From a phage, in the sequence record PZ445523.1: a stretch of 64,000 nt of DNA, one strand, 5' to 3'. Below the pieces are notes generated by a model. The model had not been told where the DNA came from. It ran no database searches and saw only the letters and a list, made by a program, of their open reading frames with translations. Numbering within the stretch: the stretch's first letter is position 1; every line of letters begins with the position of its first letter. Of this stretch, positions 29,764-48,980 are shown piece by piece. Made by a program: the position numbers and the translations under genes.

Positions 29764-29981
29764 GTCACCTTTAAGCAGTATTCTTCTACATGTTGTTTAC
29801 GACCTTTCTTATCAATAAAGGTATATTCAACGAATGTTCCAATGTAGTCTTTATCTACATCATGTGGACTATTAATTGGACATTTAGTACGGCAAATGCG
29901 TTCCCATTGACGAATAATTACTGCCTTATTCTTTGGGTCATACGGATGTGGATAATGTATATTCATAATAACGGTTCCCAA
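29754..29981 (-). CDS. Hypothetical small protein
   Basis: 75-aa ORF. Confidence 0.35.
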   Translation of the reverse strand: MGTVIMNIHYPHPYDPKNKAVIIRQWERICRTKCPINSPHDVDKDYIGTFVEYTFIDKKGRKQHVEEYCLKVTWL

Positions 29982-30430
29982 TCAACAATCACAATTTCTA
30001 ATTTAGAGGAATATGTATCTAAAATCCCCTCAATAATATCCCAGTTCCCTTTACCTATGCCTGCACCAATCCTAGGCATATAGATTGTAGGTTTAATCAG
30101 TTTATTTTCACCAAACTCATTTAATTCTAACATACAATTCATTAAAGCGGAATACTCAAAATTTGGCCCTGGTTGAAATTGAGTATAAAGATTGAAGCAG
30201 TAAGCTTTATGAGTCCTAAAGTATTTTTCATAGACTGAGTAAGAACCGAGTTTAGTTACATCGCCCCATTCTGTCTGTAATTTATCAGCTTCCAAAATTT
30301 TAGGGAAAGCTTTGGTTAATTGACCCGCTACGCCTGAACCCATAGTATGAAAACAATTGCATCCATGCGCAATATTTTTACCTTCAGCGAAAAGGGCGAC
30401 AATATCGCCCTTGATATATTTTACAATCAT
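29963..30430 (-). CDS. Macro-domain protein (ADP-ribose binding or hydrolase fold)
   Basis: 155 aa; GDIVALF...AHGCNCFHTMGSGVAGQL...PRIGAGIGKG resembles macro-domain glycine-rich loops. Confidence 0.55.
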   Translation of the reverse strand: MIVKYIKGDIVALFAEGKNIAHGCNCFHTMGSGVAGQLTKAFPKILEADKLQTEWGDVTKLGSYSVYEKYFRTHKAYCFNLYTQFQPGPNFEYSALMNCMLELNEFGENKLIKPTIYMPRIGAGIGKGNWDIIEGILDTYSSKLEIVIVDWEPLL

Positions 30431-30774
30431 CTAGTACTCAATCCTCGATTATAAGAATCTACCAAACGGTCAACCATTGAATGACAAGCGGCTTTATCTT
30501 TCTCCTCCGCAACTGAGCATTCTAAGGTATTCCACTTTTTAGCATATCGTTTTAATAATGTATCGTTTTTGTATCTGCTTGATTTATCTCTTTCTCCGTC
30601 TTTATATGCATATATTAATTTCTGTGCAAATTCAGCTTGGCATGCTTTATTTTTCCCACAATAATCTGCCGCAGTGCGGTTTACATATTCTCTAATTTCA
30701 GTATATGATGTATCTGCTGACGCAGAAGCAGAAAATGAAATTAATCCTATACATAAAACCAAAATTTTAGTCAT
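30427..30774 (-). CDS. Secreted cysteine-containing protein
   Basis: 115 aa; signal peptide MTKILVLCIGLISFSASASA; four cysteines. Confidence 0.5.
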   Translation of the reverse strand: MTKILVLCIGLISFSASASADTSYTEIREYVNRTAADYCGKNKACQAEFAQKLIYAYKDGERDKSSRYKNDTLLKRYAKKWNTLECSVAEEKDKAACHSMVDRLVDSYNRGLSTR

Positions 30775-31312
30775 TTACTATTTCCAAAAGTTTATTATTT
30801 TTAAGGTAATTAGCCTTTTCTAGGACTTCAGAAGCATATTTAGAACCAGCTTTAACATTCCATCCCGAATTATAAGAGGATATTGCTTTTCTTATATCGC
30901 CCTTATGTATATTTAACCAATAAGAAAGTTCAATGTACGCCCAGGAAGCTGAATTGGATCGTTTATTCAACATTCTTTTTATTTCAGCATCGGTCATATT
31001 ATAACCAAGTTCCTTAACTCTTGCTCGCATAGTAGGCAAATAATTTTGGAACATTCCATAGGCGTGATGCTTTGGTTTAGATTTTAAATTAACTCCGCCA
31101 GAGCTTTCTTGCCATAAAATAGCAGCCATTATATGACCTAATCCGCTCTTGTGGATATTTTTGTGTGTTTTATATTTTCCATCCTTAGAAAATTGTTCCC
31201 CGAATTGATACGCGTAACGCATGTTATCGAGTTGGACATTACTGAAAGTATGCTCGGAGCTATGTGCCATCATTGAAATGGCCAATAGACCAGCGAGTAG
31301 TGCTTTTCTCAT
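30767..31312 (-). CDS. Secreted lytic transglycosylase (SLT family 1-like)
   Basis: 181 aa; signal peptide; motifs WQESSGG, YGMFQ, SYNSG in catalytic-domain order. Confidence 0.6.
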   Translation of the reverse strand: MRKALLAGLLAISMMAHSSEHTFSNVQLDNMRYAYQFGEQFSKDGKYKTHKNIHKSGLGHIMAAILWQESSGGVNLKSKPKHHAYGMFQNYLPTMRARVKELGYNMTDAEIKRMLNKRSNSASWAYIELSYWLNIHKGDIRKAISSYNSGWNVKAGSKYASEVLEKANYLKNNKLLEIVND

Positions 31313-31808: not shown

Positions 31809-31838
31809 ATTATACCACAGCCAAGAGGAAAAGTAAAC
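31809..31838 (-). promoter_or_regulatory. Early promoter upstream of regB
   Basis: GTTTAC, 18 nt, TATAAT. Confidence 0.65.
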
Positions 31839-34957: not shown

Positions 34958-35488
<531 letters not shown>

Positions 35489-46678: not shown

Positions 46679-47269
46679 ATGCTCTTTACATTTTTTGATC
46701 CGATTGAATATGCGGCCAAAACGGTGAATAAAAACGCGCCGACTATTCCTATGACAGATATTTTTAGAAACTATAAAGACTATTTTAAACGTGCTCTTGC
46801 GGGATACCGCTTACGTACTTATTATATTAAAGGTTCACCACGCCCGGAAGAATTAGCAAATACTATATATGGAAATCCACAGTTGTATTGGGTTTTATTG
46901 ATGTGTAATGATAATTATGATCCATATTATGGATGGATTACTTCGCAAGAAGCTGCTTATCAAGCATCTATACAAAAATACAAAAATGTAGGTGGAGACC
47001 AAATAGTATATCACGTGAATGAGAATGGTGAAAAATTTTATAATTTAGTATCATACGATGATAATCCATATGTTTGGTATGACAAAGGTGATAAAGCTAG
47101 AAAATATCCTCAATATGAAGGAGCGCTTGCTGCGGTCGATACGTATGAAGCGGCTGTTCTTGAAAATGAAAAACTTCGTCAAATAAAAATAATAGCAAAA
47201 TCAGACATCAATTCATTTATGAACGACCTTATACGTATAATGGAGAAATCTTATGGAAATGATAAGTAA
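46679..47269 (+). CDS. 53: Baseplate wedge protein gp53
   Basis: 196 aa; late promoter TATAAATA at 46643-46650. Confidence 0.85.
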   Translation: MLFTFFDPIEYAAKTVNKNAPTIPMTDIFRNYKDYFKRALAGYRLRTYYIKGSPRPEELANTIYGNPQLYWVLLMCNDNYDPYYGWITSQEAAYQASIQKYKNVGGDQIVYHVNENGEKFYNLVSYDDNPYVWYDKGDKARKYPQYEGALAAVDTYEAAVLENEKLRQIKIIAKSDINSFMNDLIRIMEKSYGNDK

Positions 47270-48980
47270 TAACCTTAATTGGTTTGTTGGTGTTGTTGAA
47301 GATAGAATGGACCCATTAAAATTAGGTCGTGTTCGTGTTCGTGTGGTTGGTCTGCATCCACCTCAAAGAGCACAAGGTGATGTAATGGGTATTCCAACTG
47401 AAAAATTACCATGGATGTCAGTTATTCAACCTATAACTTCTGCAGCAATGTCAGGAATTGGAGGTTCTGTTACAGGACCAGTAGAAGGAACTAGAGTTTA
47501 TGGTCATTTTTTAGACAAATGGAAAACTAACGGAATTGTCCTTGGCACGTATGGTGGAATAGTTCGCGAAAAACCGAATAGACTTGAAGGATTTTCTGAC
47601 CCAACTGGGCAATATCCTAGACGTTTAGGAAATGATACTAATGTATTAAACCAAGGCGGAGAAGTAGGATATGATTCGTCTTCTAATATTATTCAAGATA
47701 GTAATCTAGACACCGCAATAAATCCCGATGATAGACCGCTATCAGAGATTCCAACCGATGATAATCCAAATATGTCAATGGCTGACATGCTTCGCCGTGA
47801 TGAAGGATTAAGACTAAAAGTTTATTGGGATACTGAAGGATATCCGACAATTGGTATTGGTCATCTTATCATGAAGCAGCCAGTTCGTGATATGGCTCAA
47901 ATTAATAAAGTTTTATCAAAACAAGTTGGTCGTGAAATTACTGGAAACCCAGGTTCTATTACGATGGAAGAGGCGACGACTTTATTTGAACGTGATTTGG
48001 CTGATATGCAACGGGACATTAAATCACATTCTAAAGTAGGACCAGTCTGGCAAGCTGTCAACCGTTCTCGTCAAATGGCGTTAGAAAATATGGCATTTCA
48101 AATGGGTGTTGGCGGTGTAGCTAAATTTAACACAATGTTAACTGCTATGTTAGCCGGAGATTGGGAAAAAGCATATAAAGCTGGTCGTGATTCATTGTGG
48201 TATCAACAAACAAAAGGCCGTGCATCCCGTGTTACCATGATTATTCTTACGGGGAATTTGGAATCATATGGTGTTGAAGTGAAAACCCCAGCTAGGTCTC
48301 TATCAGCAATGGCTGCTACTGTAGCTAAATCTTCTGACCCGGCTGACCCTCCTATTCCAAATGACTCGAGAATTTTATTCAAAGAACCAGTTTCTTCATA
48401 TAAAGGCGAATATCCTTATGTGCATACAATGGAAACTGAAAGCGGACATATCCAAGAATTTGATGATACCCCTGGGCAAGAACGATACAGATTAGTTCAT
48501 CCGACTGGAACTTATGAAGAAGTATCACCGTCAGGAAGAAGAACAAGAAAAACTGTCGATAATTTGTATGATATAACCAACGCTGATGGTAATTTTTTGG
48601 TAGCCGGTGATAAAAAGACTAACGTCGGTGGATCAGAAATTTATTACAACATGGATAATCGTCTTCACCAAATAGATGGAAGCAATACAATATTTGTACG
48701 TGGCGATGAAACTAAGACGGTTGAAGGTAATGGAACTATCCTAGTTAAAGGTAATGTTACTATTGTAGTTGAAGGTAATGCTGACATCACAGTTAAAGGA
48801 GATGCTACCACTTTAGTTGAAGGTAATCAAACTAATACAGTAAATGGAAATCTTTCTTGGAAAGTTGCTGGGACAGTTGATTGGGACGTTGGTGGTGATT
48901 GGACAGAAAAAATGGCATCTATGAGTTCTATTTCATCTGGTCAATACACAATTGATGGATCGAGGATTGACATTGGCTAA
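47253..48980 (+). CDS. 5: Baseplate hub and cell-puncturing protein gp5 with lysozyme domain
   Basis: 575 aa; internal domain MADMLRRDEGLRLKVYWDTEGYPTIGIGHL is paralogous to lysozyme e; C-terminal VEGN-type beta-helix repeats. Confidence 0.9.
   Translation: MEMISNNLNWFVGVVEDRMDPLKLGRVRVRVVGLHPPQRAQGDVMGIPTEKLPWMSVIQPITSAAMSGIGGSVTGPVEGTRVYGHFLDKWKTNGIVLGTYGGIVREKPNRLEGFSDPTGQYPRRLGNDTNVLNQGGEVGYDSSSNIIQDSNLDTAINPDDRPLSEIPTDDNPNMSMADMLRRDEGLRLKVYWDTEGYPTIGIGHLIMKQPVRDMAQINKVLSKQVGREITGNPGSITMEEATTLFERDLADMQRDIKSHSKVGPVWQAVNRSRQMALENMAFQMGVGGVAKFNTMLTAMLAGDWEKAYKAGRDSLWYQQTKGRASRVTMIILTGNLESYGVEVKTPARSLSAMAATVAKSSDPADPPIPNDSRILFKEPVSSYKGEYPYVHTMETESGHIQEFDDTPGQERYRLVHPTGTYEEVSPSGRRTRKTVDNLYDITNADGNFLVAGDKKTNVGGSEIYYNMDNRLHQIDGSNTIFVRGDETKTVEGNGTILVKGNVTIVVEGNADITVKGDATTLVEGNQTNTVNGNLSWKVAGTVDWDVGGDWTEKMASMSSISSGQYTIDGSRIDIG

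Follow-up and report, generated by a model that had tools for sequence, protein, structure and literature searches.

We describe two adjacent genes, vs.1 and vs, in a 64,000-nt stretch of phage DNA (record PZ445523.1; the whole stretch is referred to below as the window). The window belongs to a Tequatrovirus, and the 2 kb around the two genes are 99% identical at the DNA level to T4 and many relatives. Both genes lie on the minus strand. The first, vs.1 (30767..31312), encodes a 181-aa protein that is 100% identical to T4 Vs.1 and is predicted to be an exported lytic transglycosylase of the SLT/GH23 type. The second, vs (30427..30774), encodes a 115-aa protein that is 100% identical to the product of T4 ORF 60.9/vs; it is annotated as a 'valyl-tRNA synthetase modifier' and is predicted to be an exported four-helix protein with four conserved cysteines. 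The stop codon of vs.1 and the start codon of vs share an 8-nt overlap (ATGACTAA, 30767..30774, minus strand), an arrangement of the kind associated with translational coupling. The order of genes along the strand, regB - vs.1 - vs - tk.4 - tk.3 ... tk, is the same as in T4.

An initial annotation of the window, which gave no strand, had read the two open reading frames (ORFs) as a secreted lytic transglycosylase and a cysteine-rich secreted partner encoded upstream of it. Both ORFs exist as described, but on the minus strand the 115-aa frame lies downstream of vs.1 in the direction of transcription. The pair had not been recognized as T4 vs.1 and vs, the latter of which carries a functional name quite different from that of a partner. 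The proposed enzyme had rightly been kept apart from the gp5 lysozyme (47253-48980, plus strand) and endolysin e (34958-35452, minus strand), which are distinct genes elsewhere in the window. Taken together, the earlier reading of the pair is partly supported. Both genes and the SLT prediction for vs.1 are already known: an SLT match was reported in six T4-like genomes by Nolan et al. (2006), who also cited an earlier PSI-BLAST result (PMC1524935), and the label 'transglycosylase SLT domain-containing protein' is present in some GenBank records (e.g., OL964735). The SignalP table in Nolan et al. (PMC1524935) covers novel ORFs only, and the 1986 GenBank record names tk alone. Literature searches found no paper on Vs export or on Vs.1 function, and no experimental work on the Vs.1 family; a search of NCBIfam returned no family for either protein.

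The Vs.1 protein contains the sequences ILWQESSGG, HAYGMFQNY and SSYNSGW, which include the three motifs quoted in the initial annotation (WQESSGG, YGMFQ, SYNSG). Against the Pfam SLT profile (PF01464) it scores 25.1 bits, above the gathering score of 21.3 (E 1.4e-5), over residues 61-154 (30851..31132, minus strand), a domain delimited by the Pfam alignment and carrying the motifs WQESS, GMFQN and SYNSG. All 18 of the 18 diverse Vs.1 relatives examined match the same profile at E<=0.01 (best 1.3e-7). Two alignments of the family were compared, one with 32 relatives of at least 40% identity and one with 18 of at least 30%. The invariant columns include E69, G86, Q89, N90, Y147, N148 and G150, while F88 of the G-x-[MF]-Q motif is invariant or nearly so; a conserved segment is also present near the N-terminus (F23, Q27, N30, A34, Y35, G38). 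The glutamate E69, the predicted catalytic residue (codon at 31106..31108, TTC on the plus strand and GAA on the minus strand), is unchanged in 32/32 and 18/18 of the aligned relatives.

In the model of Vs.1, which has a lysozyme-like alpha-helical fold and gives a strong structural match, E69 is placed at the end of the helix formed by residues 59-70. Searches with the family profile against PDB sequences aligned E69 with the ES-motif glutamate (RES/NES) of goose-type lysozymes and EtgA, with weak E-values of 0.035-0.12. The ES-motif glutamate is the catalytic residue of g-type lysozymes and EtgA. Vs.1 used as a single-sequence query against the PDB sequences gave chance matches only. Complexes of PliG with g-type lysozyme and of Tse3 with Tsi3 are among its structural neighbors. 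The alignment contains no second conserved acidic residue between E69 and G86, an indirect hint at non-hydrolytic cleavage that would give 1,6-anhydroMurNAc. By every computable criterion of SLT/GH23 family-1 lytic transglycosylases (profile, E-S glutamate, downstream motifs and fold) Vs.1 qualifies, and it is a credible candidate for an exported enzyme of this type, distinct from e and gp5. The predicted mature protein (~18.8 kDa) is basic and lacks cysteine.

Signal peptides were identified with a simple rule (n/h/c-regions plus residues -3/-1), which is our own heuristic and not a trained predictor. The rule was passed by just 11 of the 168 ORFs of >=60 aa in the window, rI among them. Both Vs.1 and Vs passed it, in line with the initial annotation, and so did 74 of 77 Vs.1 relatives and 64 of 70 Vs relatives. 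Those that failed were for the most part truncated gene calls or fragments, together with two full-length sequences missing some of the criteria. Given this conservation, the signal-peptide features of the two proteins are not due to chance.

The predicted Sec signal peptide of Vs.1 comprises residues 1-18 (31259..31312, minus strand), with cleavage between MRKALLAGLLAISMMAHS and SEHTF; these residues are modeled with a low predicted local distance difference test score (pLDDT 53-55), and no twin-arginine motif is present. Its uncharged hydrophobic core is ~13 residues long (ALLAGLLAISMMA) and is followed by the cleavage motif AHS, with S at the next position. This core is shorter than the weakly hydrophobic N-terminal transmembrane segment of ~18-22 residues that marks signal-anchor-release (SAR) endolysins, a class that Vs.1 does not fit. 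In Vs, the predicted Sec signal peptide comprises residues 1-18 or 1-20 (30715..30774, minus strand), with cleavage following SFSASA, i.e., after MTKILVLCIGLISFSASA and before SA(D), or two residues further on, before D. Residues 1-20 of the Vs model are likewise unpacked and of low confidence (pLDDT ~50), and the h-region of ~12 residues is too short for a membrane anchor. Lipobox-like signal peptides were found in two distant Vs relatives. Mature Vs is predicted to begin with the peptide SADTSYTEIR or DTSYTEIR, and mature Vs.1 with SEHTFSNVQLDNMR.

The Vs protein is a member of PHROG 1256 (E 1.7e-39). Iterated searches yielded 70 database clusters of relatives, all of which carry PF26829 in precomputed annotation (the local copy of Pfam did not report this family), and a HMMER search with the Vs profile over 1.84 billion representative proteins gave 25 matches, all of them single-domain proteins of 77-134 aa. 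A motif scan of 185,579 bacterial and archaeal genomes detected no Vs. The four cysteines mentioned in the initial annotation are those conserved in the mature part of the protein; a fifth lies in the signal peptide. Seven columns are invariant among 50 members down to 22% identity (C39, C45, C86, C97, Y108, G111, L112), and the pattern C-x(4-6)-C...C-x(7-12)-C is kept in 83 of 88 proteins of the family. A 2-residue indel occurs between the third and fourth cysteines, both of which are retained. The AlphaFold2 (AF2) model (pLDDT 86.9) is a four-helix bundle (residues 22-39, 43-65, 70-86 and 91-112), in which one pair of cysteines flanks the loop between helices 1 and 2 and the other the loop between helices 3 and 4. 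The calculated mass is 13.1 kDa for the precursor and 11.0-11.2 kDa for the cleaved form. A resemblance of Vs to any solved protein, known lysozyme inhibitors included, was rejected, as neither the profile search against PDB sequences nor the search of the model against PDB folds gave a meaningful match; as a single-sequence query against PDB sequences, Vs gave chance matches only.

Vs evolves faster than Vs.1, RegB and Tk.4, being 28-53% identical where Vs.1 is 61-73% identical. It also falls into two discrete length types, which switch among phages of closely related enterobacteria. The ValRS (valyl-tRNA synthetase) proteins of closely related enterobacteria are nearly identical.

An ORF of the Vs family follows vs.1 directly, on the same strand, in 47/47 IMG/VR loci (43-100% Vs.1 identity), with a gap or overlap of between -8 and +4 nt in every one of them. 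The same arrangement was found in Acinetobacter phage Mokit and Klebsiella phage Roth66. The tblastn searches detected Vs.1 in 2,046 records from phages, as against 796 for Vs, the latter figure being an underestimate because of the fast divergence of Vs.

In about half of the related loci a third signal-peptide ORF (130-148 aa, with two cysteines in the mature part and no Pfam match) lies directly after the Vs gene. Examples, by our locus numbers, are L003 2824-3249, L006 2863-3255 and L002 2856-3296; others are L016-L020, L033-L034, L036-L040, L042 and L049-L054. This ORF was found in 255 phage records, the hosts being Klebsiella, Salmonella, Citrobacter, Enterobacter, Proteus, Erwinia and Acinetobacter; none is an Escherichia or Tequatrovirus record, and the T4 group lacks it. 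It is always paired with the short (99-111 aa) type of Vs. Aeromonas phage 31 has an apparent third ORF despite having no Vs, the homology being judged by position, size and signal peptide only. In Mokit (L003 1980-3847), vs.1, vs, the third secreted ORF, a 99-aa signal-peptide ORF and 'antiholin rI' follow one another without gaps, a block of five consecutive predicted periplasmic proteins.

Genes of the Vs.1 family without Vs were also found outside T4-like phages. In Escherichia phage finno (Felixounavirus; L005 2001-2549) the homologue is annotated 'putative lysin' and lies after rIIA/rIIB and before a polynucleotide kinase gene, 1.2 kb from the spanins; another example is Salmonella phage Det7 (Ackermannviridae; L004 1953-2570). 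Many enterohepatic Helicobacter species and a Flagellimonas carry chromosomal relatives (L056-L067, e.g., L060 3878-4510) of ~210 aa, with 28-32% identity and a hydrophobic N-terminus. The H. trogontum gene sits, as judged by eye, between glyS-like and P-type ATPase-like genes and has no Vs-like neighbor; nor was a Vs neighbor found for the bacterial relatives in general (mostly Helicobacter), whose genomic context was uninformative.

The vs.1 gene is expressed from the prereplicative region. A published data set places vs.1 and vs in an early RNA/middle protein class, with both proteins detected by mass spectrometry at rising intensity (PMC9697503 supplement). The early control proposed in the initial annotation is supported to this extent, the vs.1 RNA being classed as early and its protein as middle (PMC9697503). 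A consensus scan located a promoter-like site upstream of regB (TTTACT-17-TATAAT with TG; 31809..31837, minus strand), from which a regB-vs.1-vs-tk.4 transcript may tentatively be driven; such sites are no more numerous in the region than in shuffled sequences. The same type of scan found no minus-strand terminator-like site between this promoter-like site and tk.4.

The gene directly downstream of vs, tk.4 (29963-30430, minus strand), encodes a macro domain (Pfam Macro), and was named AdfM, an anti-DarTG2 counter-defence factor, in a 2025 preprint describing the transposon method HIDEN-SEQ (10.1101/2025.11.20.689424). A plus-strand terminator-like hairpin within the 5' end of tk.4 (30392-30412), with 8 pairs (5 GC) followed by a T-rich tail, lies on the strand opposite to all the genes here and probably matches by chance.

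The same preprint provides fitness data for both genes, each of which it calls non-essential (10.1101/2025.11.20.689424). In HIDEN-SEQ, vs was the most depleted gene in M9 glucose versus LB (mean 26.6 to 5.0, log2 fold change -2.19), and vs.1 dropped from 22.6 to 11.9 (log2 fold change -0.87, p 0.0055, adjusted p 0.155). A clean vs knockout had a plaque defect on M9 minimal medium, which the authors read through ValRS. In the liquid LB control, vs and vs.1 had ~10-fold fewer insertion reads than their neighbors (vs.3 652, tk.4 290, regB 179), while in an earlier sheet, presumably the solid-medium reference library, the values were 103 for vs, 76 for vs.1 and 634 for vs.3. Between the presumed reference and liquid LB, reads per site fell from ~103 to 27 for vs and from ~76 to 23 for vs.1, with the neighbors unchanged (Extended Data Table 6 of the preprint). 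This drop argues that insertions in vs and in vs.1 both carry a fitness cost in rich medium, a point absent from the preprint's discussion. The transposon data fit a pathway shared by vs and vs.1, and they fit polar effects of vs.1 insertions on vs equally well.

In size and architecture the closest known proteins to Vs.1 are small secreted specialized transglycosylases such as EtgA of the type III system of enteropathogenic Escherichia coli, with which it shares a length of the ~150-200 aa class, a Sec signal peptide, a single SLT/GH23 domain and the E-S catalytic motif. IpgF, IagB, VirB1 and P19 are further specialized secreted lytic transglycosylases of secretion or conjugation machines. 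Unlike these enzymes, Vs.1 is an early-region product of a strictly lytic phage, which has no envelope-spanning machine to insert. EtgA is controlled by the binding of a small partner, EscI (PMC10880428), and a similar arrangement is proposed for Vs, although Vs and EscI are unrelated. The housekeeping enzymes Slt70, MltC, MltE, MltF and MltD are large multidomain proteins or lipoproteins, whereas Vs.1 (13-19% identity) is a bare catalytic domain. T7 gp16, phiKZ gp144 and phi6 P5 are virion-borne or late lysis enzymes; Vs.1, by contrast, has an early RNA and its own export signal. Kayvirus Tgl of staphylococcal phages (PMC7150955), which is Sec-secreted as is predicted for Vs.1, resembles it in being phage-encoded, equipped with lytic transglycosylase motifs, transcribed in an early-type manner and distinct from the endolysin, but it belongs to an IsaA/SceD-like sequence family, acts in a Gram-positive host and has no described cysteine-rich partner. 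The concept of a small exported protein paired with an enzyme of lysozyme fold is known from T4 Spackle-gp5, PliG/Ivy/MliC and immunity proteins of type VI secretion systems such as Tsi3. For Vs the parallel is one of concept only, its model having no detectable similarity to solved proteins. The family named 'valyl-tRNA synthetase modifier' (PHROG 1256; PF26829) is Vs itself; the name implies a cytoplasmic target, whereas the family looks exported.

From the gene identities, motifs, fold and gene order observed here, and from the conservation of export signals and cysteines, we infer export and cleavage of both proteins, disulfides in Vs, enzymatic activity of Vs.1, and a physical partnership with a role in infection. 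In the reading that we favor, and to which we give an even chance of being correct, the two genes encode a periplasmic module in which the lytic transglycosylase Vs.1 is regulated or targeted by a co-exported, disulfide-bonded Vs. Both products of this prereplicative two-gene module would leave the cytoplasm via Sec. After cleavage by signal peptidase, Vs.1 would be a soluble periplasmic family-1 (GH23/SLT) lytic transglycosylase cutting the bond between N-acetylmuramic acid (MurNAc) and N-acetylglucosamine (GlcNAc) in the sacculus of the host, E69 serving as the only acid/base and 1,6-anhydroMurNAc ends being the product. Vs would be made from the overlapping start codon and exported alongside; the mature protein (~11 kDa) would fold as a small four-helix bundle, its two conserved cysteine pairs most likely forming disulfides. 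In the periplasm its most likely partner is Vs.1, on which or with which it would act as a stoichiometric regulator or as a targeting factor, so that the wall of the infected cell would be remodeled without premature lysis. The partnership is suggested, at the level of sequence, by the shared export signals and the conserved juxtaposition of the genes.

Several observations weigh against this module. The regB gene adjoins vs.1 in 45/47 loci and the whole region is syntenic, which makes the juxtaposition of vs.1 and vs in itself weak evidence, and conserved adjacency was therefore rejected as specific proof of a partnership. No Vs-SLT fusion was found among the 1.84 billion representative proteins (a Rosetta-stone test). 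Vs.1 occurs without Vs in the Ackermannviridae, Felixounavirus, Aeromonas phage 31 and Helicobacter chromosomes. In two phages a damaged vs stands beside an intact vs.1: in one (L021 3541-3798) an internal deletion leaves a Vs of 85 aa with two cysteines, and in the other (L039 3549-3876) the reading frame is split in two. Such natural lesions argue against Vs as an obligatory antidote. Both proteins are basic (isoelectric points 8.9 for Vs and 9.7 for Vs.1), with no obvious charge complementarity. In the AF2 model of Vs all four cysteines are gathered at one end of the bundle; the geometry would thus permit a Zn(Cys)4 site, with Vs as a cytoplasmic protein. A Foldseek search of the PDB with the Vs model had a best E-value of 2.3 and probabilities <=0.21, with no inhibitor among the 50 listed matches. 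Finally, the classical assignment of Vs to the cytoplasmic valyl-tRNA ligase conflicts with the exported look of the family.

According to that assignment, Vs is the cytoplasmic factor tau acting on the host valyl-tRNA ligase, Vs.1 acts alone in the periplasm, and the adjacency of their genes is ordinary T4 gene packing; the hydrophobic N-terminus would not serve for export, or export would involve just part of the protein, and the four cysteines would bind metal, perhaps at the zinc site that the model allows. We regard this explanation as rather unlikely, although it has a long record. Vs is described as binding the cytoplasmic host valyl-tRNA ligase, an assignment of long standing with both biochemical and genetic roots (as cited in 10.1101/2025.11.20.689424); the name and function are carried by GenBank, by PHROG 1256 and by the primary work cited. 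The minimal-medium plaque defect of the clean knockout was interpreted by its authors in the same way, and both the unspecific adjacency within a syntenic region and the phage groups with Vs.1 and no Vs are accommodated without difficulty. T4 infection reportedly rescues temperature-sensitive ValRS in vivo, and valS(ts) hosts are reported to have served for the selection of vs mutants. Against a cytoplasmic Vs stands the n-h-c signal peptide with its AXA site, which persists at identities as low as 22% although its own sequence drifts freely, together with the two predicted lipoproteins among the relatives and the h-region too short to serve as a membrane anchor. The fast evolution of Vs and its switching between two discrete types, in phages whose enterobacterial hosts are closely related, also fit poorly with a target as constant as ValRS. 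The purified ValRS-modifying factor tau was reportedly ~10 kDa in size, which is closer to cleaved Vs than to the precursor. Full-length, N-terminally His-tagged Vs produced in the E. coli cytoplasm was insoluble and formed inclusion bodies (PMC8076793).

Alternatively, Vs.1 might build up in the periplasm as an auxiliary, second muralytic enzyme, held quiet by Vs until the holin is triggered and then making lysis faster or more secure, a reading that we consider improbable. Analogies are offered by SAR endolysins and by kayvirus Tgl, a Sec-secreted lytic-transglycosylase-like protein with an early-type promoter that works with the main endolysin (PMC7150955), and the 'putative lysin' label and nearby spanins in Felixounavirus, as well as the run of the Mokit vs.1-vs cluster into antiholin gene rI, point in the same direction. 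The greater harm of vs than of vs.1 insertions in M9 is what would be expected if Vs restrains Vs.1, but only if the vs.1 insertions are polar. On the other hand, e and the holin gene t are almost without insertions in the transposon screen whereas vs.1 is non-essential, the h-region is too short for a SAR anchor, and natural vs lesions occur beside an intact vs.1.

T4 exports Spackle and Imm for exclusion, and by analogy the exported pair might alter the wall of the infected cell against incoming phages or against envelope-linked host defences, as the initial annotation had suggested for superinfection. The neighborhood includes counter-defence genes, tk.4 (anti-DarTG2 AdfM) being one and vs.4, the Acb2 sponge, another. 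The gene sp is listed as 'spackle periplasmic protein' in the transposon data (10.1101/2025.11.20.689424). Nevertheless we think this role very improbable: a glycan-cutting enzyme is expected to help penetration rather than hinder it, fitness is affected on an ordinary K-12 host, in LB as well as in M9, and neither vs nor vs.1 is a conditional hit in the identifiable sheets, those taken as the independent-library comparison and RexAB. That Vs.1 is a non-catalytic, peptidoglycan-binding pseudo-enzyme is equally hard to believe, for although by sequence alone it matches solved lytic transglycosylases weakly (best E 0.035) and its Pfam score lies just 4 bits over the threshold, all the catalytic-motif residues are invariant among relatives down to 30% identity and the fold match is strong.

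We put forward only tentatively, and think somewhat doubtful, the view that T4 Vs is a periplasmic disulfide-bonded protein whose real job is in the envelope with Vs.1. Under this view there are three ways to account for the ValRS-modifier activity: the two proteins associate only once cells have been broken open, a minor unexported fraction of Vs moonlights, or the genetic vs locus has been wrongly assigned to this ORF. The defect of vs mutants on minimal medium would, on this view, have its origin in the envelope and not in translation.

The discovery value of the locus is ordinary; with a vs phenotype now in print, what merits follow-up is the contrast between the cytoplasmic name of the Vs family and its hallmarks of export. 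The tRNA-synthetase-modifier annotation has been propagated to hundreds of genomes, and in the 2025 genome-wide screen a phenotype that depends on nutrients was interpreted on its basis (10.1101/2025.11.20.689424). Settling the conflict would lead either to the correction of an assignment that is 50 years old or to an explanation of how a protein with a signal peptide gains access to an enzyme in the cytoplasm. The Vs.1 family, still labeled 'unknown function' in PHROGs, is present in >2,000 sequenced phage genomes, and if Vs.1 is an active early periplasmic transglycosylase, large virulent phages would routinely re-tool the host wall long before lysis.

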